A stretch of DNA of 64,000 bases from a virus (IMGVR_UViG_3300044712_000936:23170-87169); one strand, 5' to 3'; shown: positions 19,164 to 45,527, counted from the stretch's first letter. Notes: generated by a model not told the origin, from the sequence alone. Made by a program: numbers and translations.

Positions 19164-19169
19164 TCCTAA

Positions 19170-21837: not shown

Positions 21838-21838
21838 T

Positions 21839-22970: not shown

Positions 22971-24026
22971 TCATGAGTTATCTCCGTAAAATTCCAATTT
23001 AATAATATTCTTTCTCCAATCAGGCTTTTGATCCCATATGTCAAACAAACAGGCTGCCCCTTTGGGGTAATTTTTCATAACCCATTGGGCAAAGGTTTTT
23101 CGATCTGTTTTGGGAGCCTGCTCATCATAAGCCATATCTAGTGTATAACGACAATTCATTATCCGATCAACAATCTCTGCATACCACTCTCTGACTTGCT
23201 CCCGATATTCTTCCGGTGCTGTTTTCATGTATTCGTCTATTTTACCATTCTCATAAGCCTTTAATGTATTCTTAAAACTTATTCCAGAAATAAATTTATG
23301 AAGTTCCCTGTACCAGTCTGTTTTAAACTTCCAGCGTGATCCGTCTGAAAACTCTGCTACAAACCCTTCCTGATCTCGCATCATCCCTGTTGCTTCTAAA
23401 ATCTGAGTAATGTTATTAAACACAACATGAGTAGGACGAGTAAATCCCCAATCATAAGCAAACGCATCTACTTCATAAAACGGAATATACCTTCCATCAG
23501 TCGGGTTACGCATAGCCAGCAGAACTAAATCCTCTGCGCCGTGATAGTCCACTACAATCTTGTTGTCGGGATAGACAATTTCAAACAACATCGTTAATTC
23601 GTAAGGAAGCTCACTCAAATTCCAATTTTCATTAAGGTATTCTGTCGCCCACAAAGCCTGATCACTAGTGAATGACCCCCTGGTGGCAATCTTACAGCCG
23701 TTATCTCTATAAAGAATTCCAAGCGATCCATCAACTTTGTCAGTGACCGACACAAGATGTCCAGTAGGATATTTACCAAACTCTCCAAAATTAAAGAACT
23801 TATCAAAGGGACGTGCTACTACTTCTGTTTTATTGACGATCAATCCTCTACTAACTGTCTCAAAGAAGTTCCAGCGGTTAGCATATTGAGCAGCATTTGT
23901 ATAGTTAAACAGATAAATCCCATTTTGTTCAATAACTTTGACATCTCCGTATTGAGACCGGTCATTGAATCCTTGGGCAACGAGACCGATGATGTCTTGA
24001 ATGGAAGTTATTTCTTTGGGTAACAT
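22971..24026 (-). CDS. RNA ligase, T4 Rnl1-like
   Basis: SRGLI, RPFDKFFN, KVDGSLG (motif I KxDG), ATRGSF, FEIVYP.N.IVV.Y, EGFV, KFK. Confidence 0.9.
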   Translation of the reverse strand: MLPKEITSIQDIIGLVAQGFNDRSQYGDVKVIEQNGIYLFNYTNAAQYANRWNFFETVSRGLIVNKTEVVARPFDKFFNFGEFGKYPTGHLVSVTDKVDGSLGILYRDNGCKIATRGSFTSDQALWATEYLNENWNLSELPYELTMLFEIVYPDNKIVVDYHGAEDLVLLAMRNPTDGRYIPFYEVDAFAYDWGFTRPTHVVFNNITQILEATGMMRDQEGFVAEFSDGSRWKFKTDWYRELHKFISGISFKNTLKAYENGKIDEYMKTAPEEYREQVREWYAEIVDRIMNCRYTLDMAYDEQAPKTDRKTFAQWVMKNYPKGAACLFDIWDQKPDWRKNIIKLEFYGDNS

Positions 24027-24065
24027 AAGATTATCCTTAAATACAAGAGTGAACTAATTACAACT

Positions 24066-24094
24066 ATTATAAACTAATTTAGAGAATAAGTCAA
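24066..24094 (-). promoter_or_regulatory. Promoter heading the leftward block
   Basis: TTGACT-17 nt-TATAAT just upstream of the RNA ligase. Confidence 0.75.
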
Positions 24095-24099
24095 TTCTA

Positions 24100-24890
24100 A
24101 TTAGAAAACAAGATGTTTTTCAAACTAATTAGGTGTGCATAAATCTCGGTATAAGCATGTACCGGAAGCCCGCGCACGAGCGAATGAGGCGGTTACTCCC
24201 CTATTAGTAAGCCTAGTTCTGTAATCGGTGTCCTAACACTACGACACAAATAAAATAGGCACGTTGTAATATTGATTCACACAATTACGCTCATTACTCC
24301 ATATTCCGTACATTCTAGGGAGTAATTATAAGCGAAGGATCGCCGCACTAATTCTAGTTTGTATTAGTTACTCTGTGATGTAATTAGATTATTGTTGTGC
24401 AAAATACCCTGGGATTTATATTACAGAATATATAGTGCCATATACTTTGTAATTAGACTACTAATTATTACTTTAAACATATATGAGGAGGAACGTTAAG
24501 ACCGATCCTATTTTGGATACTTAGCATCATAATAGTTAGCTTACTAATCATTAGCTTGCTAACGATCATAGGGTTGGGCCTATATATTCGCTTATCCGAA
24601 TAAGTTATTAATCAGATAGTTCTTATAATAATATAATCAGTCTCATATAGGCCATTGCCCTACACCCTAGATCAGCATTACAGATCAGCCATAGCAGTAC
24701 ACTCTGTTGTGTTGTTTGCTGTCTGTTCTTATGCTCTGTGTGCTTCTCTGTTCTTTGTTTCCTACGATGCCTTTGTGACACTCTACAATGGCCCTATTTG
24801 ACGAGATCCTATATATACGCGCATGGAAAGACCCGTTTAACGCCATTTGTGCGACATATACGATTAGTACCAATTTAACTAACTAAGACA
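24100..24890. other. Non-coding region at the point where transcription diverges
   Basis: No convincing ORF; gene strand switches from minus to plus across it. Confidence 0.7.
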
Positions 24891-25730
24891 GGAGAAAAAC
24901 GGCAACGAAAGACTTTAATCTGATCAAGGCTTGTTTATGGGTTTTGGTGATCTCGATCTTGTATCGTCTCAACATCTTATCGGATGCAAGCGCCACGCTT
25001 ATTTTGTTGTGCATTATCTATATCAAACTGGCGATCTTGTCCGATGTAGTCAAAGGAAAATAACATGATCAAATGGCTGTTTATTCTCGTGATGATTGCC
25101 ATGCTTAACCAGAGCACGGATCAAAAATTCGGTATGAATAAACCTCACTCCGATCTAGACTGGAATCACTCTCAGGAATTCGTGCGCGAAAATGGCGAAA
25201 ACGTTTTGTTTCATTTGTGCCCTCTGTTTAGTCCTGTGTGTGGATAACGAAAGGAATTAAAAATGATCCGCGTAAACTATACCGATCACAAAACCTCAGG
25301 CAGTTTGTTCTTTAAAACTCGTGAGGATCTCAACAAATGGCTGAGTCGTTTCGATCTGAATGCATACTCTCAGATCAAACAGGTTAAAAATGTGACTCAC
25401 GTCAAAAACACCAAACGTCAATTTAAAGCGACAATCGCGTTTGATCGGTAGTTCAAAAATGCATCTGTGATGCTCTCTGATGCCCCTATTTAAGCCGATA
25501 GGGGCAATTCTCATATAAGTAGACAAAGGGAGTAAAACGGCAATGAAAACACCACTAGCGGAATTGAAAGCAGAACTAACACGCACAATTGTTGATATGT
25601 ACAGACAAGCAGCAAAAAAACCCTTGTCAGAAAAATCAAAGGGAGAATTACAAGGTTATGAGAATGTTTTAGCATGGATCGAACTACAAGAGTCAAAGGG
25701 AAAATAAAAACCCTTTGTACAAAGGTTTTT

Positions 25731-25762
25731 GAGTCTACTCTCATAAAGTAGACTCTTTTTTT
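25731..25762 (+). terminator. Intrinsic terminator
   Basis: GAGTCTACT-CTCATAA-AGTAGACTC-TTTTTTT. Confidence 0.8.
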
Positions 25763-26670
25763 GTTTATTGTTTAAATTATTCCCCTCTGTTTTATCTGGT
25801 TTATGGTTTCCCCTATTTCTATCAATAATATTATATATTTATGTCCATCAATATATTTAAAAACAATAACTTATAAGCTTATATTTTTTATGATAAGTGT
25901 TTAAACAAATATATATTTATAGCTATCGATACAATTCTACGATTCTGTGGTAATTAAAATCATCATTATCTAGTTTAATTAGTAAGATATTACAGAATAG
26001 TCCAGTTTCTACTTACACAGATTCAAACTTTTGATATACAAGATCACTATCTTGTTTTTTAACGTGATTTAACATTCGTGAGGGGAGAATCAGATCCCTA
26101 AAACAATTCTAAATACAAAAACAAACTCTTAAAAGACCCTTTACCGATTGTACTGCCCAACAAGGCCGATCTTCGACGTTTTAGGTCTTAACATAGCGGC
26201 CCTCTACAATGCCCCGTACAGCGATTCTAGTGCCCCTGCAAGCGCGGTTATTGATCCTGTAATTAGCTCACAAATAACAACTAGGCCTCATTTGTGAACA
26301 TTGTAAATTTTTTTAAGAGAAAAGACCCAAACAGCCCACAAATAGCGACATTTAAATCAGTACCAATATTGACCAATCAAAACAGGAGAGCAAACGAAAA
26401 TGAACACTGTCAAAGTTTACACAATGGCAACAATGGGCTATATGGCGTTTTTGTTTTTCGTTTTGTTCGTGATTTTCGTCTCAGTGTTCAGTTATGCTAT
26501 TTGGAGCATGTAACCATGAACCTCATTACTCTGATCTGGTTTTTACTCTCTCTGTTGTTTGGACATTTGTCGGATCCGTGCGATTCCCCTGAGGATCATA
26601 GCAACATCGGAATCGGCATTGATTACTACACTTGCCAGCAATAGGGCATAAACAATCGAATAAACAAAGA

Positions 26671-26697
26671 AAAGCCAGCAAAAACTGGCTGTTTTTG
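26671..26697 (+). terminator. Intrinsic terminator
   Basis: AGCCAG-CAAAAA-CTGGCT-GTTTTT. Confidence 0.6.
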
Positions 26698-27297
26698 ATT
26701 CCGCAAATGTAAATTTTTTAGAACACAGGATAAGAAAATGAGAGAGGAAATTAGAACATAAAACGAATTCCGCCTCATAGGGGATTGTGTTGTTTAAAAA
26801 TATCCCCTACAATCTAAGTGTAACAAAGAAAAACAGAATAAGCGTTCTAGGCAAAGGCAAAACGAAAATGTTCAAAATCAACAGAAAATCTAGCAAACCA
26901 CTAGGAAACACACTTAACCAAAGTGAACGAGAATTGCTAGTTGGTCTGATTTTGGGCATCAGAGAAACATACGCTATTGATATGGGCAAATTATCAATGG
27001 AACTAATGAGCACAAAACCAGAGAGAGGGGAACCAATTTCTTATGAGGATTTTATAAGCGCGTTGTACTAAGCCGATCCGGGCAAGACTCAATACGAACA
27101 GATCGCAACCGAACCAAACGACATTAAGACCCGACTCAACCTTAACAATAGAACAGATAACAGGGCAGAAAACACCCTTAATGTAATGGCCCTCTATCGG
27201 ACAAACTACCGAGTCAAAAATTGAAACTTAAACTTACTTTGAAAAGACTCAGCAAAAACTTTAAAATCTGAGTGTAGCAAACAGGAGAGCAAAGGCA

Positions 27298-27954
27298 ATG
27301 ACTCAAACGACACGCGAACTAGTTCGCATAAACCTATCGTCAAAGGACAATGAGATCCAAACGCTTAACGCTATAGCGAACAGCATTAATGCCACAGATC
27401 CTAACTCTTATCTGGCCTCTCTGTTCACTCCTGAGTTTATTTCATGGGTTTCTCAAATGATCCACAGTGACATTATGCCTGATATGGAATCGGCATTAAA
27501 AGCAAACGAAAATAGCGCCCACAAAAACTCAGTTGAACACTCTCAAGCTGAGATCACAATCACAAAGCAAAGCGAATTGATTGACTCTCAGGCAGAAAGA
27601 ATCGAAACATTAACCGAACGGATCGATCTCAAAACATCGGAGATCGATTACCTAAAACGGGAACAGAGAGATCTAGAGATCGCAGGAAAAAAACAGGAGT
27701 TAAAAGAGGCTTTTCACTTGACAGAGAAAGATCTAGAGGTGGTTTGGTTCATGATCAAACGGTACTCGATTTTATATCACACTGATTACCTCTGGCGCGG
27801 TTGGTCACAGTATACGATCCGTAAGCTTGAGAAAAACGGACTAATCGACAACGAACCAGAAAACGGGATCTACAGTCTATCAATGAGGGTTGAACACTGG
27901 ATCACCCAAAACATGACAAGTGAACTATTGTACTCTGTACAGATGTTTGGATAA
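27298..27954 (+). CDS. Coiled-coil protein with possible C-terminal winged helix
   Basis: RBS; heptad-rich middle; TIRKLEKNGLI...GIYSL. Confidence 0.55.
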   Translation: MTQTTRELVRINLSSKDNEIQTLNAIANSINATDPNSYLASLFTPEFISWVSQMIHSDIMPDMESALKANENSAHKNSVEHSQAEITITKQSELIDSQAERIETLTERIDLKTSEIDYLKREQRDLEIAGKKQELKEAFHLTEKDLEVVWFMIKRYSILYHTDYLWRGWSQYTIRKLEKNGLIDNEPENGIYSLSMRVEHWITQNMTSELLYSVQMFG

Positions 27955-28466
27955 TGCCCCTATTTAATGAGGTAGGGGCAGGACAGCATAAACAGCAAAG
28001 GATCCTAATCTGTAGACACTATTCACCCAAAAAACACGACATAAATATAACGACCTGTATCTATAACACGAAAGGAAAAAAATCAAATGCCTAACTTTTT
28101 TAAGACCGTAAAGCACGAATACGAACAGCAAAAAGAAACCAACGCAAAGAATGCGCGTACAATCGCGGAATTGCGCGCCCATTTATCGCATATGATCGAG
28201 TCTTGCAATTCCTCATTGGATGTAATTGATCCGCGTGATGATATTGCATTGGCACAAATGATCACACGGAAAAACACATGTGTTGAGATCCGCTTTCTAT
28301 GATGCCGCAGCAAACGGAGAAACAGAGGAGATCGGCAGGGCATGTAGACGTATAGTGCGCATACTGTCGTAAGATTATTTATTAACTTATATTTCTTTTC
28401 ACTTAGTATTTTTTAATATCCGCATTAAAAATATAGGTTAGCGGATCGGACAAAGGAAAGGCGTAT

Positions 28467-29744
28467 ATGATCTCTGAATTCGAACAAACCTATGAAAATG
28501 ATTATTTTCCATACGAACAGATCAATGATCTGATCTGGGAATGGATACGGCAAAACGATATTAGGCGGGCTTACCTTAACGTTGAATACGCGATGGATAT
28601 TTGCCGCGAAAATTACGGGAAACTTAAGCCCGGTAAAATGATCGCAAACGCGATCAAAAAATTGATCCATATGCGGATCGATCAAATAAGGGAGGACAAT
28701 TACGAGTACCAAAAACCGATTCTTGAAAAATTGGAATCGCTTAAAATCTCTCCTGAGACAGTAACATTTTGGGGCAATGCCATAGCCAACCAACCGAAAG
28801 AAAAAATCACGATCCGTTTAACCTACGGTTGTAAAGGATCTGCACGTGAATACTATCATGTAGGTAGTTGTTGGTGGGGAGGGTATGAAACTAGTAGGGA
28901 TTACTTGGAATCTAGCTATGGCGGAGCAATTCGCGCTTATCGTAATGATGAGATTGTAGGGCGAGTCTGGTTTATTCCCTATAGTGATGGAATCATCCTG
29001 TTTAACGCCTATGGTAAGGGGGAATTAGGGAGAATCGGATCTTGGAGCAACCTACTAAAACGATCCTTTCCTGATTATTTTGTTAGCAAGGTAATGCTGG
29101 AATTCGGGGGGGATCCTGGAGTCTTATTCCAGAATTCAGAGAGCACTAATCTGTACATTGGTCCTAACAAAATCAACGATGAAACGATCAGAATCGATCT
29201 GACTCGTCCTGAGAAATTTAAATACGCCAAAGATTTAACGTTTTGCTCTCATTGCGGGATCCCTATCATCGGCGGATCTGGTTATTCCACAACCGACAAC
29301 GGAGTCATTTGTTACGCTTGTCAGAATCTTTTCTACGCCAGATCACGATCCACAGGGGCATGGATCCCAATTGAAAACGCGATAGAAGTTTATGATGCGT
29401 ACAATGATCGGTACTATGAATCGCCTGACTCGCCTGACATTATCTATGCTAGGGCAATAAACCGTTATGTTTACATTACGGATTACTGGGTGGATGTTTT
29501 TGGTACTGCCCACAGGAGAGGCGCTAGATCCTGCTTCCGTTGTCGCGTCTCTGGTAACATTTATCCTGTAGATCGCTTAGTGTGGACACAGATCGGACCA
29601 GTAGATCGGACCAATTACGATCCTGAGGTTCACGTTTTGGGAATTCCAGAACAACCGCAATATGCACCGAGTCTCAGTTTTGCGGATCGCCAGAATCAAA
29701 TGGCCCTCCGGCGGCAATGGCAACAGTTAACTAGTCTCATGTGA
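28467..29744 (+). CDS. Unknown family YYHxxSCW protein, paralogue 1
   Basis: Core GC.G.A..YYH..SCW...SR...GGAIRAY...GRVWF.P..DG..LFN.YG, then CxxC region. Confidence 0.8.
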   Translation: MISEFEQTYENDYFPYEQINDLIWEWIRQNDIRRAYLNVEYAMDICRENYGKLKPGKMIANAIKKLIHMRIDQIREDNYEYQKPILEKLESLKISPETVTFWGNAIANQPKEKITIRLTYGCKGSAREYYHVGSCWWGGYETSRDYLESSYGGAIRAYRNDEIVGRVWFIPYSDGIILFNAYGKGELGRIGSWSNLLKRSFPDYFVSKVMLEFGGDPGVLFQNSESTNLYIGPNKINDETIRIDLTRPEKFKYAKDLTFCSHCGIPIIGGSGYSTTDNGVICYACQNLFYARSRSTGAWIPIENAIEVYDAYNDRYYESPDSPDIIYARAINRYVYITDYWVDVFGTAHRRGARSCFRCRVSGNIYPVDRLVWTQIGPVDRTNYDPEVHVLGIPEQPQYAPSLSFADRQNQMALRRQWQQLTSLM

Positions 29745-29806
29745 GATTAGTTCGCTATCTCTCTAGCCTCTCTCAGGAGAGGATATTCTATTTTATCTCA
29801 GTGTTG

Positions 29807-29910
29807 TGTAAGCTTCTGTAATGCCCTACAATGGCCCTAATTAGGGAGATCGGTAGAAAACCACCTAAACAAGCATATCGCGTTAAATAGGGGCATTACA
29901 GAGGCTTACA
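29807..29910. repeat. 20-bp inverted repeat built from the AATGCCC(C)T family
   Basis: TGTAAGCTTCTGTAATGCCC (29807-29826) pairs with GGGCATTACAGAGGCTTACA (29891-29910), one G-U. Confidence 0.8.
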
Positions 29911-30495
29911 GGGGCATTGTAGAAACAATTCAACACACAAAACTTAAGAGAGGGGTACAAAACTGGCTGTTTTTGTTCATGCTCTCCTGAGACGCTAAGG
30001 TAAGCAATTCAACACTGGCATAGATCCCAGGGTAATTTTTGGCCTATCCTGAGATGCTAAAATAGGCCTCACAATGCCCTACAATGCCCCCGTTTGATAG
30101 GTGCATGGTAGTTGATACCACTATATAACTGATCGCCCCGTTTTGGGGCATTTGATCGCGTTTTCTTTCTCTCAACTATAGAATAGGTGCAATATGTTTA
30201 GAACCATTAAAACAGAAAAAATTACAGAAAAAAGAATTCGGCTTAATTTCTATTTAAATAACGCTTATATGGGTTATTATGAGGCTTTGCCTTATATGGC
30301 GATAAGTGAACTACTAATACGTATTAACAAAGGCTATACGCTAGTAGAAGACTCAGCCCTACTAGTTAGCCCGAAAAGCACCTACGGGATTGACGAAAAT
30401 TCCCGGCCTTAATTTGTCAAATAGACATGATAAATATACCCACAAAAATGAGATCGGCCCATTCTGATTCCGGCCTATTAAGATCGATCTAACGG

Positions 30496-30655
30496 ATCGG
30501 CGTGCAACGTAGGGGACTCGGCGTGTAAATTTAAAACGGCAATGAGAGGGAACAGCGTGCAAAGATCCGGCCTAATTGACTCATACTATGGAATCGGCGT
30601 GCAACTTTTCGGCACTTTCGGCGTGCAAAGAACGACTAAAGAATCAGCGTGCAAA
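30496..30655 (+). repeat. Cluster of direct repeats C(G/A)GCGTGCAA (iteron-like)
   Basis: CGTGCA cores at 30501, 30556, 30598, 30622, 30648 plus variant CGTGTA at 30522. Confidence 0.85.
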
Positions 30656-30756
30656 CCCTAGTAATAGAGGTGGAGGGTTGGGAATTGTATATATATACAT
30701 AGAAAATGCTTTTCCTTGTCCAATGGATTGCCTATATAGTATATATAGATATATAG

Positions 30757-30836
30757 AACCTTTAAAAGAACAGTATAAAAGATCAAAACCTTTAAAAAGG
30801 AATCAGATCTTAGATCAATATAGAAAACCTTTAAAA
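30757..30836 (+). repeat. Three AACCTTTAAAA repeats in a very AT-rich tract
   Basis: Copies at 30757, 30787, 30826. Confidence 0.8.
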
Positions 30837-32244
30837 GAAATAAGAATAGATCAAATACATTGACTCTATAATTAGAATATGATACAGTATATCTAAAAGA
30901 ACACTATTAAAAACGAAAGGTTTAATATAAATGGACATCGTAAAAATTATCGAATATCACGATAAGATTATAATGCACACTATTCTGTATAATGCTCCTG
31001 AATCAGTATGTGAAATTTCAAGAAAAGAATTGTATATGATTCAACGGCAATTATCTAAATGGTGGGTTACATCTTATACAGTAGAGTCAGATAAGACTAC
31101 TACAATATATGAAAGGTATTAATATTATGATCGAAACCGCCGCAATTATAAATGATATTAATAAGCGCATTGCTGAACAGCATAAACTGATTCAATTTTA
31201 CCGTATGACATTATATGTCAATTTTAGCGGTGCATGTAAGATCGTATTGCGCTCCAAACAACAGAAAAAAGTTGTTATTAATGTGACATATTCTTATATG
31301 TCTGATGCGACCAGAGGAGCGGAAATATTAAACAAATTAAAGCCGCATATTAGAATTATTATGCGGGATAATATTGTTAAGGGTATGATTATTACTTATC
31401 GGCTGTCCGTTAATTATATCTTTATTCATTCCGTTAATTAATTGATTTTCCTTAACAAAATAACCGCTTGCTTTTTTAGCAATGTGGTATATAATCTAAT
31501 TAAAGCAGATGAATTAACAATTACCAATTATTCAGCTATATAATACTCGTTTAAGTAGTTACTATTTGAACAGATCCGGAGTAGTGAACCGGGCGTAATT
31601 GCGAAATATCTGCTTTTTTATACTTATTATTTGGCTTATCTTCCGGCATTATTATGAGGACAAGCAAATGATCACAAATCAGGATATTGTCGTAGTTCTG
31701 TGTTCGTTTTTCACTGTGGGCTTTTGCTCCTGTCTAACCTATGTAGCGTTAAAGTCAATCAACCTGTTAAAACGCAAACACAAAAAAGAATTGGCAGAAA
31801 AACAGGCGGAGATCGACGCATTGTATAAGGAATTATGGGCTGTTACTTTGCTGTACCATAGTGCCCCTGTTATTGTTGGCAAAGATCAAAAATTGCCTTT
31901 GGGCAAGATTCAAAAAGCTAACGGTACAATGCGCGAGGTTACAATCGGCGGCAAACGGTACATAGGACTAGAAAGTGAGATCCAGGCATACAGTAAGGGT
32001 AAAACTAAGGTATGCCGATCCTATTGGGAATGGTCGAGTCGCCAAAACTGGAAAGAAGTGCATACTGAATATCTGATGGTTGATGAATCAGATGTTGCTA
32101 AGAGTTTTGTGCATGCAGACAGTACCCATTGTTACAAAGACTCTGTTGTCGATGTTTTGGAATTGGTGAAAAACTAAGTCCCTTTGTGCAAAGCTTTAGC
32201 GACTAAACTAGTGTACAGTATAGCATGAAAGGCAAAGGATACCG

Positions 32245-34337: not shown

Positions 34338-35084
34338 GAGTCATAATGCCTAAATTGACGGACTTTGAACGAGGGACAATCGTTAGAGTTATTAAACCCT
34401 TTGATGCTGATCGAACACCGTGCCCCCAAAAAGGCACAGTAGGTATTGTGTACCGGGTAGATGATGATGGTTTTATCTGTGTGGCTTTCTTTCTACCGAT
34501 GTGGGATACACGCGGTAACGAGTGGTTATCTCAGGGCAATAATAGCATATTTATGCGATTGCGTTTCTTTCCTGATGAACTAGAGATCGTTGACGTTTTG
34601 TAAGTGATTAATAATTGAACAGCGTGCAACAAAACAGGAGTATAAAATGGATCATACAGAATGCATAATTTGGAACATATTTATATTAATACTTTCTTTC
34701 GGTTCGATTATATTGGCAAGCACTATATCTGGTCTGTTGATGATCGTGCTAGGTACAGTGGGAGTCTTTGGTTTGTATTTTAGCGTCATATCCCTCGCTA
34801 CTCTGTTAGGCGACGATTATAAATAAGGAGAAATTATGTATACAAATAGGTTTTTTATAATGGCGTTGTTAATGACGCTGTTCTATAGCAAGGCAAACGA
34901 TAAGTTAGAATTCAGTATTGTTGTTATTGCTATGTTCGTAATATACAGCCTATCGGCTATTGCTGACGAGTTACACAATATCAATAAACATCTAAGCAAA
35001 AAATAACGTGCAACGAATTGTCAAACCCTTAAGATAGGCCTCTGTAGTGGAGACATACCTTAAGGGAATCTCCTACCTTTTCTC

Positions 35085-35112
35085 TTGACTTAACGTGCAA
35101 CTGTGGTATAAT
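35085..35112 (+). promoter_or_regulatory. Promoter with a CGTGCAAC motif in its spacer
   Basis: TTGACT-16 nt-TATAAT with extended -10 TG. Confidence 0.7.
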
Positions 35113-35153
35113 TGTAATTAGAGTAAAAGACAGGGTAAAGGATAAACCTACTT

Positions 35154-36119: not shown

Positions 36120-36137
36120 AACGGAAAAGAGAAAGCA

Positions 36138-37061: not shown

Positions 37062-38392
37062 TACCTATTGAGAGAAAGGCTATAACGATGGATTTAAAAG
37101 ATACGTCTTTTGTGTACACGACTGATGGTATGTCTTATGATCCAGATACCTTGTACAAGGCGTTAGAGTGGTTGCACCATTCACATCATATTGAGTGTTG
37201 CCCCTGCCATACCTTGCCAGCCATAAGCGAATACCTAGAAAATACCACAGCTAAACCAGCTAAAGCTATTTCTAAGTATTTTGCTGATCATTATGGTATT
37301 AAACTGGCGACAGAACAGCGTACAGAGTTTGGCAACCGGGTTAGCTGTGCTCGTATGGCACGCACCTATAAGGTGGTATTAACCCTCGGTTGTCAGGGTA
37401 ACTCGGATGATTATTATCATGAACGGTCTTGCTGGTGGGGTAGTTATAGCATTTCTCGTGACTTTGTTGAGTTTAACGGCGGCGGCGCTGTCCGTGTTTA
37501 CACCATAGATGGAGACATTCAGGGTAGAGTGTGGTTTTTGCCCTTCGATGATGGTATTGTTCTGTTTAATAGTTATGGTCTAGGCGAATTACAGCATGTA
37601 CATTCGTGGGGGCCAATAGTCGCACAGCTATTAGATACAGATTTTTGTAAGTCAACTATGGAAATTCTCAACAATCGGGGACATCTTTACATTAACAGTG
37701 AGGTTTCTGCTTATGTAGGGCCAAAAATTGTACCTATTTCAACTAAACACTGTAAGATTCGGCTATCTATCCCTGACAGGTTCGTATACAGCCCTGCTAG
37801 GGTCTGTAGTCATTGTGAAAGGGTATTTAGCGATGGCGGAGATGTTCGTTTGCTGGAATTTAATGATCAGTATGTTTGTGGAGGTTGCCTAGACGAATAT
37901 TATGCCTACGATGTGATAGATCGTATGTATAAGCCCAAAGAATTAATGCAAAAGGTTTGGGGCATGTTCCAATACTCTACGGCACGTCAAAAATGGTTTT
38001 CAGTTGTGCCAAGTGACGCGGTATATATAGATTCAATGGGCTATTGTTTACCAGATTGTTTGGTTGATGATGTTTATGGTACTCAACATCTAGTAGGATC
38101 TGGTACTTATTTTCGCTGTGACTTCTCCGATAAACTCTATCCTAGAAGTGAGTGGACAAGGACTGTATTAGGTGCGGTGGCTAAATCTGTTGTAGCTACC
38201 GACGAATTTAAAGCTAAGGTAGCTGAATACGAAAAGACGCAAGAGAAAGCCAGAGATGAGTGGAGACAGGAACGTCTTTTTCGCTCTACAGGAATAACAC
38301 AAAAGAGTGCGTCATTCAATTTTAAACCACCGTCTATTGACTGGGGAACACTGTTTACAAACTTTGTCGATGACGATCAGGACCATTCTTAA
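37058..38392 (+). CDS. Unknown family YYHxxSCW protein, paralogue 4
   Basis: Same core; overlaps the peptidase stop codon. Confidence 0.8.
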   Translation: MIPIERKAITMDLKDTSFVYTTDGMSYDPDTLYKALEWLHHSHHIECCPCHTLPAISEYLENTTAKPAKAISKYFADHYGIKLATEQRTEFGNRVSCARMARTYKVVLTLGCQGNSDDYYHERSCWWGSYSISRDFVEFNGGGAVRVYTIDGDIQGRVWFLPFDDGIVLFNSYGLGELQHVHSWGPIVAQLLDTDFCKSTMEILNNRGHLYINSEVSAYVGPKIVPISTKHCKIRLSIPDRFVYSPARVCSHCERVFSDGGDVRLLEFNDQYVCGGCLDEYYAYDVIDRMYKPKELMQKVWGMFQYSTARQKWFSVVPSDAVYIDSMGYCLPDCLVDDVYGTQHLVGSGTYFRCDFSDKLYPRSEWTRTVLGAVAKSVVATDEFKAKVAEYEKTQEKARDEWRQERLFRSTGITQKSASFNFKPPSIDWGTLFTNFVDDDQDHS

Positions 38393-39189
38393 CGGAGTGG
38401 TCCTCCACCATGAGAGGGGATCCTATGAAGATTCTTATTGAACAACAGGGATCGAAACAGCGTGCAACTTTTTGTGTTATTGTGCAAAAAGGTAAAACTA
38501 GTAAGAGTGTTTCCGGTATTTCTGATAAAGCAGTCATGAGGATTTTGCGGTGGATATGCAAGAAAAACTTTACTTATCAAGGTGCGACTTTTGATGTGGC
38601 ATCCGATACAGTTACGATTGTCTTTGTCGGGGAGATGGTTTCCAATGTTGCCTCTTAGTTTTGAAACTAAAGACATCGAGTGGACACGCGAGGAAATACG
38701 TGCTGTCTTAGACCTGATTAAAAAACAGGAACCTACGTTACTCAGGGTATCTATGCCCGATGCTTGGCTGTTCAAAAAGTCTTTGTACAAAGGCCAAACA
38801 TACTATATAGCACGGCGCATGACTTCTTTTAGCTGTGACGCTGTAACCACAACCTTCGATAACTTTATTGCTGAAATGGAGTCTTACTATGATCGCTACT
38901 ATGGGAGAGGGTATGAAAACTACCTTAAAAACAGTAGTTATTAAGTTCAACGATGTAAAGGACGGAAGTCACCCTGATCGTGTACATATGATTGAATATG
39001 TTTATGCTGATGGGACAACGTGCAGCTTGGCAGGAAACGATGATCTGGTGATGGGGGTTGTACTGACTCTTATGAAACTCGGTTTATCGAACCAGCGTGC
39101 AGCACAGGAATTAGTGGACAATTCTAGCGGTGAACCTGTGGTTGTTGAGGACGATGTGCAACCGCTGGTGGCAGAATACGTACTGCAAT

Positions 39190-39222
39190 AAAAAAAGAAC
39201 CCGGCTCATCACCGGGTTTTTT
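39190..39222. terminator. Bidirectional terminator between convergent genes
   Basis: A-tract, AACCCGG-CTCATCA-CCGGGTT, T-tract. Confidence 0.8.
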
Positions 39223-39228
39223 GTTTGT

Positions 39229-40065
39229 CTACAATGTACAGGCGTTGTTTGTGTGTTTGGTATGGGCAATTCTAGCACCTTTCGGCGTAGAGGTATAGCC
39301 ATCTTTACCACATTCACATTCCCAACGATACCGCTTCTTTTTTGGATTACTGGGGATATAACTGATATATTCTGGTAAACCATAGATAATCTTGTTTGGC
39401 TCTGGCAGCTGCTTTTGTTTAGGCTCTGAGATTAGGGGTACAGAATCACTAACAGGCTGATCAATAACCGGATCGGCGTGCAACGTTATAGTCAGTAATT
39501 GGCGTCGAAGTTTCTGTACATATTCAGCCTGTAATTCATCGGCAATGTTCATGATAGCCAATTCCATTTGTTTGTTTTTAACGGTTCGCTGTTTTTCACT
39601 CAGCTGGCGTGCATCTTTTCTTTCTTGTCTAACCTTGTCTCGTTCAAAAAAGATTTCCCAGTGAGAATCCTTGTAGGCTCTCCAATCAGCTACAAACCAG
39701 CCTGTTGTCACCACCGTCATGATACCTAAACCAATACGAGGGGCAAAGGCCATCAGTCCACTGTCCTTGAAGCCAATGACCACGATGGATAAATAGAGCG
39801 CAAATAGACCCATCACGTAGGCCCACCGTACCGCTATAGTCTCATCGTCCCTTATTGGCTCCTCGAGAAAGCCAAGTAAAGCAATATACATAATATCAAT
39901 CAGAAACACAGCTAATATTGTTGCTGTAGTTGCTACAAATTCACCGTGCCCTCTCAACTCTTGCTTAAAAATGTCCCATGTAGAAACCGAATTAAACGCG
40001 GTTCCTGCAACCTTAGCGATCAACCACAACTGTTTATTAGTAATGTTTTTTATAAAGTTCTTCAT
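39229..40065 (-). CDS. Multi-TM membrane protein with coiled coil and C-terminal C2H2-like finger
   Basis: About four hydrophobic segments; CECG...AHTKH; opposite strand to the surrounding block. Confidence 0.65.
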   Translation of the reverse strand: MKNFIKNITNKQLWLIAKVAGTAFNSVSTWDIFKQELRGHGEFVATTATILAVFLIDIMYIALLGFLEEPIRDDETIAVRWAYVMGLFALYLSIVVIGFKDSGLMAFAPRIGLGIMTVVTTGWFVADWRAYKDSHWEIFFERDKVRQERKDARQLSEKQRTVKNKQMELAIMNIADELQAEYVQKLRRQLLTITLHADPVIDQPVSDSVPLISEPKQKQLPEPNKIIYGLPEYISYIPSNPKKKRYRWECECGKDGYTSTPKGARIAHTKHTNNACTL

Positions 40066-40105
40066 GTGAGATTAACCTTCCGCTATGATGGATAATAATA
40101 CTTTA

Positions 40106-40134
40106 ATTATATCATCGTTTTGTTTAGAATGCAA
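40106..40134 (-). promoter_or_regulatory. Promoter for the minus-strand membrane protein
   Basis: TTGCAT-17 nt-TATAAT. Confidence 0.65.
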
Positions 40135-40330
40135 GAGGTATTTATTCTTTTTTAATTGTTACAGCGTAGGTGACTATATTAAGTACATCCTGTACATTAT
40201 TTATGATAATACGATTAGCGGAAACAGCGTGCAACACTAGAAAAACAAGAAGTAAATTAGTGATAAAGGAGAGCACCAGCAGTAAAATAAGTATCATTGT
40301 TAGAATCCCGTTATAAAATAGATGAAAGGC

Positions 40331-40359
40331 TTGACAAACATTCAACTGTATAGTATTAT
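40331..40359 (+). promoter_or_regulatory. Promoter for the Y RNA array / Ro60 unit
   Basis: TTGACA-17 nt-TATTAT; predicted start about 40366, coinciding with the first RNA stem. Confidence 0.8.
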
Positions 40360-40366
40360 ATATCTA

Positions 40367-40461
40367 ACGTGGCCTGACAAAAAGCCTTTGCCTTGTCGGT
40401 TCGGTTGTAAACATTATGTGATCCTCCTTTCGAGTTTGGACTATGTAGTGTCAGGCCATGT
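40367..40461 (+). ncRNA. Stem-closed 95-nt RNA containing anti-SD-like GATCCTCCTTT
   Basis: 13-bp closing stem ACGTGGCCTGACA/TGTCAGGCCATGT beginning at the predicted TSS. Confidence 0.55.
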
Positions 40462-40478
40462 TTTCTTAGACCGTATAT

Positions 40479-40602
40479 TGCGGGTCGTTTGGTGTACGTT
40501 ACCGATGCTAACGGAGTGGTTAGAGGTTCGAATCCTTTACCCCGGCAACGGGGTTAGCTCAATTGGTAGAGCACTTAACCGTATACCTACCTATTATCCG
40601 CA
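40479..40602 (+). ncRNA. yrlA: Y RNA, YrlA type (tRNA mimic)
   Basis: Bulged-C stem TGCGGGT(C)G/TATCCGCA; second helix GGTGTACG/CGTATACC; permuted tRNA domain with T arm AGAGG-TTCGAAT-CCTTT, acceptor-like hairpin ACCCCG-GCAA-CGGGGT, D arm GCTC-AATTGGTA-GAGC; upstream of Ro60. Confidence 0.9.
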
Positions 40603-40617
40603 TGGTAATGAAAATGA

Positions 40618-40681
40618 ATCGGGTCGAATCGTTTTGGTTATCCTTTGACGATAATCACCAAGACGAGACAATTTATCCGGT
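40618..40681 (+). ncRNA. Short Y RNA (64 nt), Ro-binding module with minimal loop
   Basis: ATCGGGT(C)GAA/TTTATCCGGT bulged stem; TCGTTTTGGT/ACCAAGACGA; shared GGTTATC motif. Confidence 0.75.
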
Positions 40682-40696
40682 GATATAGCTTTGTAG

Positions 40697-40779
40697 TTTT
40701 GGGTCGCTGTATCAGGGTTATCTTATATCTGGCTACACGCTAGTGATAAACAACCACCCTGTACGACTTTAACCCGAAA
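40697..40779 (+). ncRNA. Short Y RNA (about 83 nt)
   Basis: TTTTGGGTCG/TAACCCGAAA; GTA(T)CAGGGT/ACCCTGTAC; shared GGTTATC motif; apical CTGGC/GCTAG hairpin. Confidence 0.7.
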
Positions 40780-40782
40780 ATG

Positions 40783-40814
40783 AGCAGACCGGAATTATTC
40801 CTGTCTGCTTTTTT
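40783..40814 (+). terminator. Intrinsic terminator between Y RNA array and Ro60 gene
   Basis: AGCAGAC.GGAA-TTA-TTCC.GTCTGCT followed by a T-run. Confidence 0.75.
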
Positions 40815-40837
40815 ATTTATATAGCTAGGAGCTAAAA

Positions 40838-42418
40838 ATGGCAAAGTATACTCAGTATTTTGACCCGCAGAAGATTCCTCAGACTAAACCTTTACCCAAG
40901 AGTAAACAGGTTCCTAATAGTGCTGGTGGTTATGTTTACGCCATTGAACCCTGGTCGCAGCTGTATCGTTTTCTGATCCTGGGAACTACTGGTGGAACTT
41001 ATTACTCATCGGAGCACGATTTAACCGTGCAAAACTATGACGTTGTTTTGGCGTGCATAGAACAGGACGGTAGACGTGTTGTTGATATGATCCTGGAAGT
41101 TTCAAAAGAGGGGCGTGCAGCGAAAAATGATCAGGCATTGTTTACGCTGGCACTGTGCGCGGCGGCTGATTCGGTTGACACTCGTCGTTATGCCCTGATG
41201 AACTTGGATCAGGTTGCTCGAACCGGAACACACTTGTTTGAGTTTATGGAATACGTGCAGCTTTTCCGGCGTTGGGGTCGTGCTTTGCGTGCTGCTGTTG
41301 GCAACTGGTACAAGCGCAATCCTGATCATATCGCTTTGCAGGTTATGAAGTATCGCCAGCGTAACGGCTGGACTCATCGTGACGCTTTGCGTATGGCTCA
41401 TCCAACACCTGAAACGCCAGAGCAGAACGATTTGTTTAACTGGATCTGCAACGAAGAACCGTCTGAACTACTGTTGTCCAGCATTCCTATGATCAATGGA
41501 TTTATGCAAATTCAGCGTGCAACAACGGCGGCAGAGGCAGCGAAGTTGATTTCTGAGTATCGTTTGCCACGCGAGACTGTGCCTACACAGTTTCTAAAGG
41601 ATGCGGTTGTTTGGGATGCCTTGTTAGATCATATGCCCATGACAGCCCTGATTCGTAATCTTGGCAATATGAGTGCTTGCGGTTTGTTAAAGCCTAACAG
41701 TAATGCGGCAATGGAAGTTGCTGATAAACTGTCAGACGATCAGCATATCCGTTCTTCTCGTTTGCATCCAATGTCTATTTTAACGGCATTGTCAACTTAC
41801 CATTCTGGTTCAGGTTTACGGGGTCACAATACCTGGACTCCTGTTCCACAGGTAATTGATGCTCTGGACGATGCTTTTTACAAAGCTTTTAATAATGTTA
41901 CACCTACTAACAAACGATATTACGTCGGTGTCGATGTTTCTGGCAGCATGAGAACCAGTTTCTGTGACGGTGTTTTGTCCTGTTGTATGGGTGCAGCGGC
42001 TATGGCTATGGAAATCGCCCGAACCGAGCCACGCTACTTCATTCAGGGTTTTTGTGATACGATGGTTGATCTGGACTTTACAGCTAAGACGTCTCTTACT
42101 GATGCTGTTTCTAAGGCCAGCAAGCGCAATTTTGGTAGAACAGATTGTGCCCAACCAATGATTCACGCATTGAACAACGGCATCGAAGCTGATGTCTTTG
42201 TGGTCATTACGGATAATGAAACCTATGCAGGTAAAATTCATCCATCAGAAGCCTTGCGTGTGTACCGGAAACAAACAGGTATTCAGGCTAAGTTAGCGGT
42301 AATCGCTATGACTTCAACTGGCTTCTCTATTGCGGATCCGTCCGATCCGAACATGCTTGACTTTGTTGGTTTCGATGCAAACCTTCCATCTGCTTTGTCT
42401 CAGTTTGCTCTCCTGTAA
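40838..42418 (+). CDS. rsr: Ro60/Rsr TROVE-domain RNA-binding protein with vWA domain
   Basis: QVPNSAGGYVY, RFLILGT.GGTYY, RTGTHLF, WGRALR, KYRQRNGWTHRDALRMAHP, MPMTALIRNLG, MIDAS DVSGSM, TDNET. Confidence 0.97.
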   Translation: MAKYTQYFDPQKIPQTKPLPKSKQVPNSAGGYVYAIEPWSQLYRFLILGTTGGTYYSSEHDLTVQNYDVVLACIEQDGRRVVDMILEVSKEGRAAKNDQALFTLALCAAADSVDTRRYALMNLDQVARTGTHLFEFMEYVQLFRRWGRALRAAVGNWYKRNPDHIALQVMKYRQRNGWTHRDALRMAHPTPETPEQNDLFNWICNEEPSELLLSSIPMINGFMQIQRATTAAEAAKLISEYRLPRETVPTQFLKDAVVWDALLDHMPMTALIRNLGNMSACGLLKPNSNAAMEVADKLSDDQHIRSSRLHPMSILTALSTYHSGSGLRGHNTWTPVPQVIDALDDAFYKAFNNVTPTNKRYYVGVDVSGSMRTSFCDGVLSCCMGAAAMAMEIARTEPRYFIQGFCDTMVDLDFTAKTSLTDAVSKASKRNFGRTDCAQPMIHALNNGIEADVFVVITDNETYAGKIHPSEALRVYRKQTGIQAKLAVIAMTSTGFSIADPSDPNMLDFVGFDANLPSALSQFALL

Positions 42419-42448
42419 AAACAAAGGGGGAAATTCCCCCTCTCCTTC

Positions 42449-42476
42449 TTGACATTCCCCAAATATCTGCTATAAT
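42449..42476 (+). promoter_or_regulatory. Promoter
   Basis: TTGACA-16 nt-TATAAT with extended -10 TG. Confidence 0.75.
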
Positions 42477-42510
42477 TAGACTATAGTGAAACAACAGATA
42501 GGTAAAAACT

Positions 42511-43996
42511 ATGTTTGTATATATCATGAATACCGGGACTTCGACCCATCCTGTGTGGGTTGTTTCTGAAACGATCTATAAATTAGCTTATGCCTGTCTC
42601 TCTGACTTGGGAGATGAATTGCGTCGTTTACGTCCCTTTTATGTCTATAAACTAGATACGGTAGACGATGATGTTGCCCTATCATCCTATGATTTTGTCG
42701 AATCTGGCAGATATAAAGCCGGTTATGTGGTTGATTTGTTTGAGTATTTGCGAGAGCATTTAGTTTACAATTTGGAAAAAGGCAATCTAGATTTCTCAAA
42801 TTATGGAGGCACAAAATGATAAAGCGTCTTTTGGTTGAGTTTTTTGTGATCTGTTCCTTTTTCGCCGCTTTCGCTGGCTGTACTCTACTTGCGAGAAGCG
42901 GTTTGGGGAATGACATTCTTCTCGGCGCTGTTGCTTGCGGTATGTTCTTGTGCGCTTGGTATGTTATTCATGCCATTTATGACGGTTTTAAAAACGACAC
43001 AAAGGATTACTCATGACTCAAAAACTACTTATTGGAGAATGTGTTATGAGTTGGGCAGAAAAAGTTATTGAAGAAGTTTTGTATAACCTTTATGGTGGTT
43101 TTATGTCTGAAAGCTTAGCTTGCACCATTCTGCAATGTGATTACACAAAGCTAGACTCATTGATGCGAACCAACTACGGCAAGTCATGGCGGGAAACCTA
43201 CAGTATTAATCGCAGTATCGAACTATACGGAGACGATTAAACGATGATTAAAGATTTAATCTACAGTTTCTTAGCTACTGGTTGTGCTACTCTTGTGTCG
43301 GTTTTGTTTGTTTTGCTGGTAAACGGATCAGAAACAGGCAAACAAATTGTTGTAGGAATTCTCCTTTTTGCTGTGTTTTGTCTGGTATGGACAACCATAT
43401 ATTTGCTTTTCTCTAGTCTAAGAGGGCGCTAGTATGAAGAATAAAATGATAGCTCTGTTATGCTCTTTACTTCCAATAGTTTTTATCGTTCTGTTGGTTG
43501 TATCTAAAACTGCCCTTTTGTTTAGTGCTTTAGCAATTACAGGAGTATATATCTTTATTCTTGTGTATTGTCTGTACTGTATCGTGTTAGACGAGTTAAA
43601 CAGCAGAAAGGATCAGGGATGAAAGAGATTATTGCAAGTTCAGCACTGGTAGTTTGGATTTCAGTTTTGGTTTTTGCTCTTGTAATCTGTTCAACATTCG
43701 GGTATCTTTTCTTTTACAAGGATATTCTGAATCTTCAGCGCGAAGCTGTTCAGCACTCAAATGAGTACGAACAGTCCAAAGTAACAGAACTTGTTCAGAC
43801 TTATGATCGGTACGTTTATCTTGACACACAGATCGCGCTGTATCAGGGACACCAGACCATCATTATGAGTTTCAAAGGACAGCAAGCAGCGGCGGTTAAA
43901 CGGATGTGCCAAGCTTACAGTCTGATCCCTAATGATATTCGTAACGATGTGGTTCCTTTGTATATCATCCAGTTTTTGCATGATAAGGGGTGCTAA
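42511..43996 (+). other. Cluster of small genes, mostly membrane proteins (42511-42819, 42816-43016, 43013-43240, 43244-43432, 43434-43622, about 43619-43996)
   Basis: Coupled starts and stops; four have one or two hydrophobic helices. Confidence 0.65.
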
Positions 43997-44556
43997 TAAT
44001 GCGTAAGGTGCTTGTTGTTGCTCTGTTTTTGATTGCTTTTGTTGGTACGTTCGCTGGTTCTTGTGATGACACAACCGCAGTAGAAAAAGAGCGGAATGCC
44101 ACAAATAACCAGATGAGTCAGCTTCTGAATTCACAACCCATTCCGGTTTTTGAGTGGAGTCTTGAGCGCGAAATTGTGATTGATATTTTCCGTGCTCGTA
44201 ATGAAGCAGTTTCTACTTGGAGTGTTGTCCAGAACCCTTATACGGGCGCAATTATGTTTGAATGCCCATCTATCGGCTATCCCATTCCTGGTGGAACTAA
44301 GTTGACTAATCCTTATCAAATTCCTGGTAATGATTGGAGTAATACCAGCATCCCACAGGCAGAGCCAAATGGATTGTATATTCCCGAAAGTTCAGCTGGA
44401 ACCTACATTAACTGTGTGAACGAAAACGGTACAGTCAGTCCGGTATTTGAAGAATTTTACGTGCAAACCTTCCCCTTCCCGGTTGAAGAAATTGACGGTA
44501 AGCTGGTACGGGTTAAGGGTGTCGAACCAACTATTGCAATTCAGACTCAGAAGTAA
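43990..44556 (+). CDS. Putative lipoprotein
   Basis: MRK plus hydrophobic stretch plus FAGSC lipobox-like site. Confidence 0.6.
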   Translation: MLIMRKVLVVALFLIAFVGTFAGSCDDTTAVEKERNATNNQMSQLLNSQPIPVFEWSLEREIVIDIFRARNEAVSTWSVVQNPYTGAIMFECPSIGYPIPGGTKLTNPYQIPGNDWSNTSIPQAEPNGLYIPESSAGTYINCVNENGTVSPVFEEFYVQTFPFPVEEIDGKLVRVKGVEPTIAIQTQK

Positions 44557-44558
44557 TT

Positions 44559-44678
44559 GGGGGAGAAATAGGATCGATTGGGTGCGGGGATGCCTAGTAG
44601 GTGAAGGCGATTGAGCAAGACTGAAAAGCATCCTTAACCGCATTCAAGAACCGGGTGCAATTCCCGGCTCCTCCACCA
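44559..44678 (+). ncRNA. Mini-tmRNA: tRNA-Ala-like domain without a normal mRNA domain
   Basis: Acceptor GGGGGAG/CTCCTCC-A-CCA with G3-U70; tmRNA-like D-loop AAATAGGATCGA with no D stem; long P2-like helix TTGGGTGCGG.GGATGC/GCATCC..CCGCATTCAA; T arm CCGGG-TGCAATT-CCCGG. Confidence 0.85.
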
Positions 44679-44681
44679 TAC

Positions 44682-44753
44682 GCTACAGTAGCGCAACGGT
44701 AGAGCACCAGACTTTTAATCTGTAGGTTGGAGGTTCGAATCCTCTCTGTAGCA
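44682..44753 (+). tRNA. tRNA-Lys(UUU)
   Basis: GCTACAG/CTGTAGC; CAGA-CTTTTAA-TCTG; GGTTCGAATCC. Confidence 0.9.
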
Positions 44754-44756
44754 CAG

Positions 44757-44838
44757 GCAGGTGTGGTGAAATCGGAAAACACAATTCACTTAAAATGAAT
44801 CGGGGAAACCCTTATCGGTTCGAATCCGATCACCTGCA
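44757..44838 (+). tRNA. tRNA-Leu(UAA)
   Basis: GCAGGTG/CACCTGC; ATTCA-CTTAAAA-TGAAT; variable arm GGG-GAAA-CCC-like. Confidence 0.9.
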
Positions 44839-44861
44839 TAGATTATATTGTAGGAGCAAAT

Positions 44862-45386
44862 ATGGTATACGAACTAAGAAAACGTGGTAATGGATACTTA
44901 TATTTTATAGATAAAAATCATCCACTTGCCAGAAAAGAAAGCAGTTACATGGTGTATTACCATCGTCATATAGCATCGTTGAAAATCGGTAGATGGCTTA
45001 ACGAGGACGAGCATGTACATCATATTGACGGAAACACGTACAATAACGATCCCGATAATTTAGAAATTATGTCTAATTCTGAGCATACTTCTGTTCATCA
45101 TCCAGGTAATAAAAGGGCTATTAAAAAATGTATGTATTGCCATAAAGAATACGAACAAATAGCACAAACACAAAAATACTGCTCTGATAAATGTGCTCAT
45201 TTGGGTAATAGAAAAGTGAATAGGCCGTCTAAAGAAGAATTAGAACAAGAAATAATGGCTATGAATTGGTTAGCGTTAGGTAGAAAGTACGGTGTAAGCG
45301 ACAATGCTGTAAGAAAGTGGGCAAAAGATTATAGTATCCCGGTAATAAAAAGAAAATACACACGCTCCCGTAGCTCAGCGGATTAG
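44862..45386 (+). CDS. HNH homing endonuclease inside tRNA cluster
   Basis: YYHRHIA...VHHIDGNTYNNDPDNLE...EHTSVH; CxxC..YCSDKC; C-terminal HTH. Confidence 0.88.
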   Translation: MVYELRKRGNGYLYFIDKNHPLARKESSYMVYYHRHIASLKIGRWLNEDEHVHHIDGNTYNNDPDNLEIMSNSEHTSVHHPGNKRAIKKCMYCHKEYEQIAQTQKYCSDKCAHLGNRKVNRPSKEELEQEIMAMNWLALGRKYGVSDNAVRKWAKDYSIPVIKRKYTRSRSSAD

Positions 45387-45440
45387 AGCCGCCGCCCTCT
45401 AAGCGGTGTGGTGTCGAGAGTTCGAATCTCTCCGGGAGCA
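45364..45440 (+). tRNA. tRNA-Arg(UCU), atypical C33
   Basis: GCTCCCG/CGGGAGC; GCCGC-CCTCTAA-GCGGT; A20 Arg determinant; overlaps the 3' end of the HNH ORF. Confidence 0.8.
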
Positions 45441-45443
45441 CAC

Positions 45444-45527
45444 GGAGACAAAGCACTAATGGATGTGCGCCAGTCTGTAGAACTGGTTAGCTTAGGCTAG
45501 TTGGTGGTTCGAGTCCACCTGTCTCCA
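45444..45527 (+). tRNA. tRNA-Tyr(GUA)
   Basis: GGAGACA/TGTCTCC; CCAGT-CTGTAGA-ACTGG; long variable arm TAGC-TTAG-GCTA. Confidence 0.88.

Follow-up and report, generated by a model that had tools for sequence, protein, structure and literature searches.

The DNA analyzed here (the window; 64,000 nucleotides, with positions counted from its first base) comprises bases 23170-87169 of IMGVR_UViG_3300044712_000936, a complete 87,169-bp virus record whose ends overlap by 127 bp. The DNA runs containing this virus are two rhizosphere metagenomes, with no RNA run listed for it, and it can be recognized as a tailed phage from its structural and replication genes (TerL, a DnaB-like helicase, a primase, a family A polymerase and a tyrosine recombinase). 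Distributed over the window are genes for an Rnl1-type RNA ligase, a Ro60 protein accompanied by Y-like RNAs, a transfer-messenger RNA (tmRNA) cut down to its tRNA-like domain (TLD-only tmRNA, or mini-tmRNA) and six tRNAs. The original prediction had combined these components into one coordinated arsenal against host ribotoxins, with decoy, replacement, repair and rescue layers. The Y RNA cassette, Ro60, the mini-tmRNA and four of the tRNAs are all found on the plus strand within 5.2 kb (40.3-45.5 kb), while the Rnl1 gene resides on the opposite strand, at distances of 17 kb (to Ro60) and 21 kb (to the tRNAs). The main value of the analysis lies in separating what is conserved from what is incidental, as the unit that this lineage conserves is a tag-less tmRNA joined to a tRNA and not the whole arsenal.

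The mini-tmRNA belongs to a transcription unit that begins downstream of Ro60 at a perfect sigma-70-type promoter (42449-42476, plus strand; 12/12 consensus positions) and contains seven small open reading frames (ORFs), the mini-tmRNA, tRNA-Lys, tRNA-Leu, an HNH endonuclease ORF, tRNA-Arg and tRNA-Tyr. It occupies 120 nt (44559-44678, plus strand), with tRNA-Lys starting 3 nt after it, and matches the Rfam tmRNA model RF00023 at 40 bits and an E-value of 1e-13, below the gathering score of 47. This match runs from end to end with 292 of the 374 model positions deleted, leaving a loop of ~36 nt. The tRNA-like domain is intact, showing a 7-bp acceptor stem with a G3-U70 pair, an A73 discriminator, an encoded CCA, a T arm, a stemless D loop and a long closing P2 helix, and the fold has an energy of -46.8 kcal/mol (z -2.85). 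The mRNA-like domain is missing, with neither a tag reading frame nor pseudoknots present, and ARAGORN neither calls the molecule nor reports a tag peptide. A blastn search of the mini-tmRNA against phages returned just weak 28-nt matches to its 3' end (E at least 1), and a DNA pattern of it matched nothing among viral contigs. A reading of the sequence as an attP fragment was ruled out by the presence of both acceptor strands and of the closed P2 helix.

Two relatives carry counterparts of this element. The nearest complete relative, IMGVR_UViG_3300007354_000004 (G001; 81 kb, terminal repeats), has a TerL 62% identical to that of the window phage and 41 of 143 ORFs in common, all of them structural or replication genes; nearly all of the window between 7 and 46 kb is without a G001 counterpart, the exceptions being four weak ORF matches. 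The second relative is the metagenome contig Ga0334892_1000287 (L103), of which 21 kb were examined. G001 encodes a TLD-only tmRNA of 89 nt (G001:39892-39980, minus strand; 41 bits, E 1.5e-16) 2 nt upstream of tRNA-Thr, and L103 encodes one of 121 nt (L103:6577-6697, plus strand) directly before tRNA-Thr(UGU), the latter recognized by sequence and fold and not detected by the Rfam tmRNA model. In both relatives a TTGACA-17-TATAGT promoter is located just upstream of the mini-tmRNA, and in all three phages the mini-tmRNA-tRNA unit is syntenic, residing between a homologue of the ORF at 39229-40065 and the replication module. The three acceptor stems (GGGGGAG/CTCCTCC, GGGTCTG/CAGATCC and GGGCCAG/CTGGTCC), which were compared by eye as MAFFT misaligned the three RNAs, keep G1-C72, G2-C71, G3-U70 and G7-C66, and positions 4-6 vary in a compensatory manner. 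As counterparts are found at the equivalent position in two relatives and the acceptor stems show compensatory changes, the sequence evidence identifies the mini-tmRNA as a real gene, which upholds its original identification, and the mini-tmRNA-tRNA unit as a conserved element of the lineage.

The other components do not follow this pattern. No Ro60 and no Rnl1 were found in the whole G001 genome, whose only tRNAs are Thr(UGU) and Arg(UCU), and L103 has no Ro60 in the equivalent slot or anywhere in the 21 kb examined. These comparisons mark the Ro60-Y RNA set, the Rnl1 gene and all but two of the six tRNAs as specific to the window phage. The original prediction named independent occurrence of the components across relatives, along with a failure of all of them to rescue tRNA-cleavage toxicity, as what would speak against it, and the first of these is how they are distributed in the two relatives.

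The anatomy of the mini-tmRNA also bears on the proposed rescue layer. As it has no tag reading frame, canonical rescue by trans-translation tagging would not be possible, and as SmpB (PF01668) is absent from the phage genome, SmpB of the host would be needed. TLD-only tmRNAs are known in very few phages. Mycobacteriophage DS6A carries one, listed as "TLD only" on the tmRNA Website, and a similar TLD-type molecule is cited as a strong tmRNA inhibitor that perhaps acts via SmpB titration (PMC4131195, PMC11915505). The DS6A molecule resembles the one described here in comprising little beyond the tRNA-like domain, but no sequence relation is detectable between them, and the unit of the window phage differs in being placed 2-3 nt upstream of a tRNA and kept in three related environmental phages. 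Given its G3-U70 pair and A73 discriminator, the mini-tmRNA would probably be charged with alanine and bound by host SmpB, and since it lacks a reading frame it would most likely compete with host tmRNA and thereby block tagging or trans-translation, classical rescue being unlikely. The cited precedent likewise points toward inhibition of trans-translation. We consider this lineage-conserved unit the most interesting piece of the locus, as a conserved, promoter-driven TLD-only tmRNA in three related environmental phages provides a testable case of phage manipulation of ribosome rescue.

All six tRNAs named in the original prediction were called by both ARAGORN and Rfam. Four follow the mini-tmRNA on the plus strand, namely tRNA-Lys(UUU) (44682-44754), tRNA-Leu(UAA) (44757-44838), tRNA-Arg(UCU) (45364-45441) and tRNA-Tyr(GUA) (45444-45528), and two are found on the minus strand near 12 kb, tRNA-Thr(UGU) (12123-12196) and a tRNA with a CAU anticodon (12791-12864), this pair having its own promoter (13115-13087, minus strand). 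The tRNA-CAU has a paired G1-C72 and an anticodon stem lacking the three G-C pairs of an initiator and so is not tRNA-fMet; by these features it is predicted to be an elongator Met or an Ile2 (AUA) tRNA. ATA makes up 22% of the Ile codons of the phage and AAA 63% of its Lys codons, GC3 is 0.37, the top Leu and Thr codons are TTA and ACA, and AGA is the second Arg codon. The anticodon loop of tRNA-Lys(UUU), CUUUUAA, is canonical, and the anticodons found here rank among the frequent ones at 80 other phage loci. These tRNAs would therefore appear to decode A-ending codons favored by the phage itself, and such codon supply (to which buffering of host tRNA loss might be added) fits at least as well as nuclease evasion. 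Of the replacement layer originally proposed, the presence of the tRNAs thus stands, with plain codon supply accounting for them equally well.

Each of the two tRNA pairs is interrupted by an HNH endonuclease ORF, an interleaving also seen in Streptomyces phage TunaTartare. One such ORF (44862-45386, plus strand; PF13392 8e-12, phrog_15471 9e-28) separates the Lys/Leu from the Arg/Tyr pair, its 3' end overlapping the first 23 nt of tRNA-Arg, and the other (12320-12781, minus strand) lies between tRNA-CAU and tRNA-Thr(UGU).

The identification of Ro60 was confirmed. The gene (40838-42418, plus strand) encodes a protein of 526 aa with TROVE and vWA domains (PF05731 9e-42, PF25045 3e-59) that matches Deinococcus radiodurans Rsr (PDB 2nvo) at 3e-119, has closest homologues 50-56% identical to it, and is followed by a terminator (42425-42441, plus strand). 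Upstream lies a non-coding RNA cassette (40331-40815, plus strand), consisting of a near-consensus promoter at 40331 (TTGACA-17-TATTAT), four RNAs that folding shows to be closed by stems (about 40362-40462, 40478-40600, 40618-40683 and 40697-40780) and an intrinsic terminator (40784-40815). The fold z-scores of the four RNAs are -4.1, -1.2, -2.0 and -3.2, and that of the terminator is -6.4. An RNA resembling YrlA was detected at 40489-40592 (plus strand; Rfam RF02553, 39.1 bits, below the gathering score of 69, E 4.8e-6), with clear T-arm and D-arm sequences and located 246 nt upstream of Ro60 on the same strand. What two further RNAs of the cassette have in common is a stem closed by 5' GGGUCG, and the fourth is a hairpin RNA. 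The plural "Y RNAs" of the original prediction is thus one RNA supported by a model at a score below gathering, plus look-alikes. The cassette terminator ends 23 nt before the Ro60 start codon with no promoter-like site between, so that expression of Ro60 would need read-through.

The decoy role assigned to the Y RNAs found no evidence in our analysis, and the only experimentally studied phage Ro60, that of Thermus phage phiLo, binds two Y RNAs (Yrl1/Yrl2) and host PNPase and attenuates the activity of PNPase (PMC12135203). As in phiLo and in bacterial Rsr-YrlA (PMC4201824), Ro60 in the window has more than one Y-like RNA beside it, and one of these candidates includes a tRNA-like module. It is set apart by its sequence, which is far nearer to that of D. 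radiodurans Rsr and of animal Ro60 (E about 1e-119) than to that of phiLo Ro60, the latter being absent from its matches at E 1e-5. The Salmonella rsr-yrlBA-rtcBA operon, which is induced by tRNA damage as the original prediction stated (PMC7790460), likewise places Ro60 and a YrlA-like RNA in one unit, and the window phage encodes an RNA ligase elsewhere in its genome. In contrast to that operon, the phage has no RtcB (PF01139; RtcA, RtcR and sigma-54 elements were not searched), its promoters are sigma-70-like, and its ligase is an unlinked, ATP-dependent Rnl1. By analogy with phiLo, the Ro60-Y RNA particle, carried by this phage and not by its relatives, would most likely dock on host PNPase and alter RNA decay.

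The Rnl1-type ligase was also identified correctly. Its gene (22971-24026, minus strand; 351 aa) matches PF09511 at 3e-18, phrog_562 at 3e-68 and T4 Rnl1 (2c5u) at 2e-16, and relative to the T4 enzyme it retains motif I K-x-DG (TDKVDGS), motif IV EGFVA and motif V KFK (WKFKTDWY). It is the first gene after a near-consensus promoter (24094-24066, minus strand) and belongs to a run of leftward genes that also encodes DNA methyltransferases, ThyX, dCTP deaminase and MazG. In T4 biochemistry, Rnl1 requires healed ends. No AAA_33 kinase (PF13671), PNK3P (PF08645), RtcB, metallophosphoesterase or Rnl2-like gene was found in the genome, tblastn with the polynucleotide kinase (Pnkp) of TunaTartare, Seahorse and FADO gave no match in it, Pfam scans of accessory ORFs of ~100 aa or larger revealed no Pnkp, and the sole Walker A motif is that of the helicase. 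A Pnkp-like gene is located 0-2 genes downstream of Rnl1 in three of the closest annotated homologues tested (Streptomyces phage TunaTartare, Arthrobacter phage Seahorse and Bacillus phage FADO). As Rnl1 requires healed ends and no healing enzyme is encoded, the phage alone would be unable to reverse anticodon-nuclease cuts, and the repair layer lacks one of its parts. The lone Rnl1 would seal nicks with 3'-OH and 5'-phosphate ends. The similarity to the T4 pathway, in which Rnl1 and Pnkp repair tRNA-Lys cut by PrrC, extends to an Rnl1 family ligase with its catalytic lysine and motifs IV and V and to a tRNA-Lys(UUU) gene in the genome; the differences are the missing Pnkp and the hypothetical status of any PrrC-type nuclease in the host.

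In order to determine how often such components travel together, as the original prediction had proposed, their co-occurrence was counted across phages. In a collection of isolate phages, Ro60 relatives were found in 371 records (211 Mycobacterium, 118 Streptomyces) and Rnl1 relatives in 2,070, among which Mycobacterium falls outside the ten commonest genera (<48 records); these host-genus counts imply that each gene is mostly found in phages without the other. In IMG/VR, where single-sequence Ro60 patterns matched no viral contigs and an alignment query was used, Ro60 relatives are encoded on 509 contigs. The Rnl1 family occurs in 6 of 50 Ro60-positive records of at least 50 kb, and in 4 of 23 that are at least 90% complete, all four being 179-462 kb long. 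A full-length tmRNA was present in about 3 of 26 Ro60-positive records, the other short matches being tRNA-Ala. Among 80 loci examined up to 10 kb from Ro60, Rnl1 and an ARAGORN-called tmRNA were each found once, and a crude TLD scan of these loci showed no other mini-tmRNA. The co-occurrence counts therefore do not support the set of genes as a package.

Taking the identities, anatomy, synteny and co-occurrence counts as what was observed directly, and the molecular activities as inferred from them, we consider it reasonably probable that the accessory region holds at least three separately acquired RNA-metabolism modules (the lineage-conserved mini-tmRNA with its tRNAs, the Ro60-Y RNA particle and the lone Rnl1) and not one demonstrably coordinated system. 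Several observations weigh against this explanation. The first is spatial, in that all parts except Rnl1 and the CAU/Thr tRNAs share one strand over the 5.2 kb described above. The tendency of phage Ro60 genes to adjoin tRNA genes is another, and is a second, measurable lead in its own right: tRNA density falls from 0.28/kb in the first kb from Ro60 to about 0.1/kb past 5 kb, and after Ro60 proteins were collapsed at 70% identity into 60 clusters, a tRNA was found within 10 kb of Ro60 in 30 clusters, within 2 kb in 25 and within 1 kb in 19. The 19 of 30 clusters with a tRNA no more than 1 kb away correspond to p about 2e-12 against uniform placement, and as adjacency is so far above that expectation, Ro60 and tRNA arrays are likely to be functionally connected in some way. 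About ten of the adjacent calls are single tRNAs 35-500 nt from Ro60 (for example at loci L037, L040, L067, L069 and L082), which is the location expected for Y RNAs, so that tRNA-shaped Y RNAs, and not decoding tRNAs, may account for some of the signal. In addition, a host healing enzyme could complement Rnl1, and the codon comparison covers the codons of the phage, which leaves compensation for host tRNA supply a prediction.

The combination of tRNAs, ligase, Ro60 and tmRNA also recurs, being already known from annotated actinophages. In TunaTartare (MW822145), a Streptomyces phage of the BE cluster, Ro60, tRNAs, Rnl1 and Pnkp are located in one arm, and the BE2 phages (CeilingFan, Mugiwara) are reported with one tmRNA (PMC13191466). 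Similarities of the BE cluster to the window phage include a Ro-like protein whose gene is embedded in tRNA genes interspersed with HNH endonucleases, and an Rnl1-type ligase with 33-35% identity to that of the window. The BE cluster is the fuller version, with about 44 tRNAs, an ARAGORN-detected tmRNA and, besides Rnl1, a second RNA ligase, a metallophosphoesterase and a polynucleotide kinase encoded two genes downstream of Rnl1. In the window phage, by comparison, there are 6 tRNAs, a mini-tmRNA without a tag and no healing enzyme, and Rnl1 lies far from the RNA block on the opposite strand. The virion and replication genes of the two are unrelated. Mycobacteriophage Bxz1 also encodes Ro60, preceded there by two tRNAs at a distance of 3 kb, and is listed among ssrA-bearing phages.

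A single counter-defense against tRNA-cleaving toxins, in which the tRNAs replace, Rnl1 repairs, the mini-tmRNA rescues and Ro60 with its Y RNAs acts as decoy, is attractive in that tRNA-Lys(UUU), tRNA-Arg and tRNA-Tyr are documented nuclease targets and both phage tRNAs and T4 Rnl1 are documented counter-measures (PMC10264068). The damage-induced rsr-yrl operon of Salmonella, the clustering of all parts except Rnl1 and the CAU/Thr pair, the recurrent Ro60-tRNA adjacency and the near-consensus host-type promoters ahead of Rnl1, the Y RNA cassette and the tmRNA/tRNA unit are consistent with it. However, the components part company in the nearest relatives and across Ro60-positive phages, nuclease-type ends could not be sealed by the phage alone without Pnkp or another healing enzyme, the mini-tmRNA has no tag frame and its cited experimental precedent is inhibitory, the tRNA-CAU is not the initiator targeted by VapC, and the presence of 16 similar promoters across the genome indicates no special co-regulation. 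Known nuclease targets moreover cover so many tRNA species that a match of six anticodons says little. What remains of the arsenal is that its parts exist, most of them within 5.2 kb, and that Ro60 recurrently adjoins tRNAs; their coordination, with Rnl1 17-21 kb away, is a weakly supported inference, and we regard it as unlikely. Equally improbable, in our estimation, is co-location without function, in which tRNA arrays act as hot spots for insertion that homing endonucleases reshuffle, and stable RNAs gather through shared RNase P/RNase Z processing, leaving these genes neighbors by history. The HNH endonuclease ORFs inside both tRNA pairs, and repeatedly in the TunaTartare tRNA arm, would be expected from such a process, as would a slot that varies among relatives and the 2 kb separating Ro60 from the mini-tmRNA, which are filled with unrelated lipoprotein-like ORFs under a separate promoter. 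The steep fall of tRNA density with distance from Ro60 over 60 independent clusters nevertheless suggests more than a generic hot spot, and the 2-3 nt junction between mini-tmRNA and tRNA is kept in three phages. Slightly less probable still is that the Y RNA-Ro60-mini-tmRNA-tRNA block forms a functional island sustaining phage translation while the host cuts tRNA and mRNA, in which the tRNAs would replace losses, the tag-less tmRNA would free or shield ribosomes that have stalled while leaving phage proteins free of a degradation mark, and Ro60 with its Y RNA would protect or clear damaged RNAs.

Further features of the region were recorded. The small ORFs between Ro60 and the mini-tmRNA (42449-44556, plus strand) show no RNA-related signature and no Pfam match, with one assignment to phrog_24725, of unassigned function. 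The last two (43568-43996 and 43990-44556, plus strand) are phage lipoprotein-like or hypothetical according to a protein atlas, which gave no resemblance to RNA enzymes for either. PHROG and Pfam matches are absent for most accessory ORFs, a megablast search with window 38-46 kb found no nucleotide match in 50,697 phage records, and a TerL alignment search found no prophage relatives in genome contigs. The gene for a DEDD exonuclease of the RNase_T/DnaQ family (46394-46993, plus strand; PF00929 1e-15) follows the tRNA cluster at a distance of 0.9 kb, and its product could act in replication proofreading or in trimming tRNA 3' ends; a homologue is also found downstream of the mini-tmRNA-tRNA unit in G001 and L103. 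The leftward block (11279-22705, minus strand) contains three DNA methyltransferases, ThyX, a dCTP deaminase-like protein and MazG, and a fourth methyltransferase-like ORF (54793-55437, plus strand) is located within the replication module. Finally, the 16 near-consensus sigma-70-type promoters agree with the consensus at 11-12 of 12 positions, occur throughout the genome (for example at window positions 10099, 13115, 19163, 21837, 24094, 40331, 42449 and 55777) and nearly all point along the genes. This pattern suggests that the phage depends on the RNA polymerase of a host in which -35/-10 recognition is canonical, without a phage RNA polymerase of its own.

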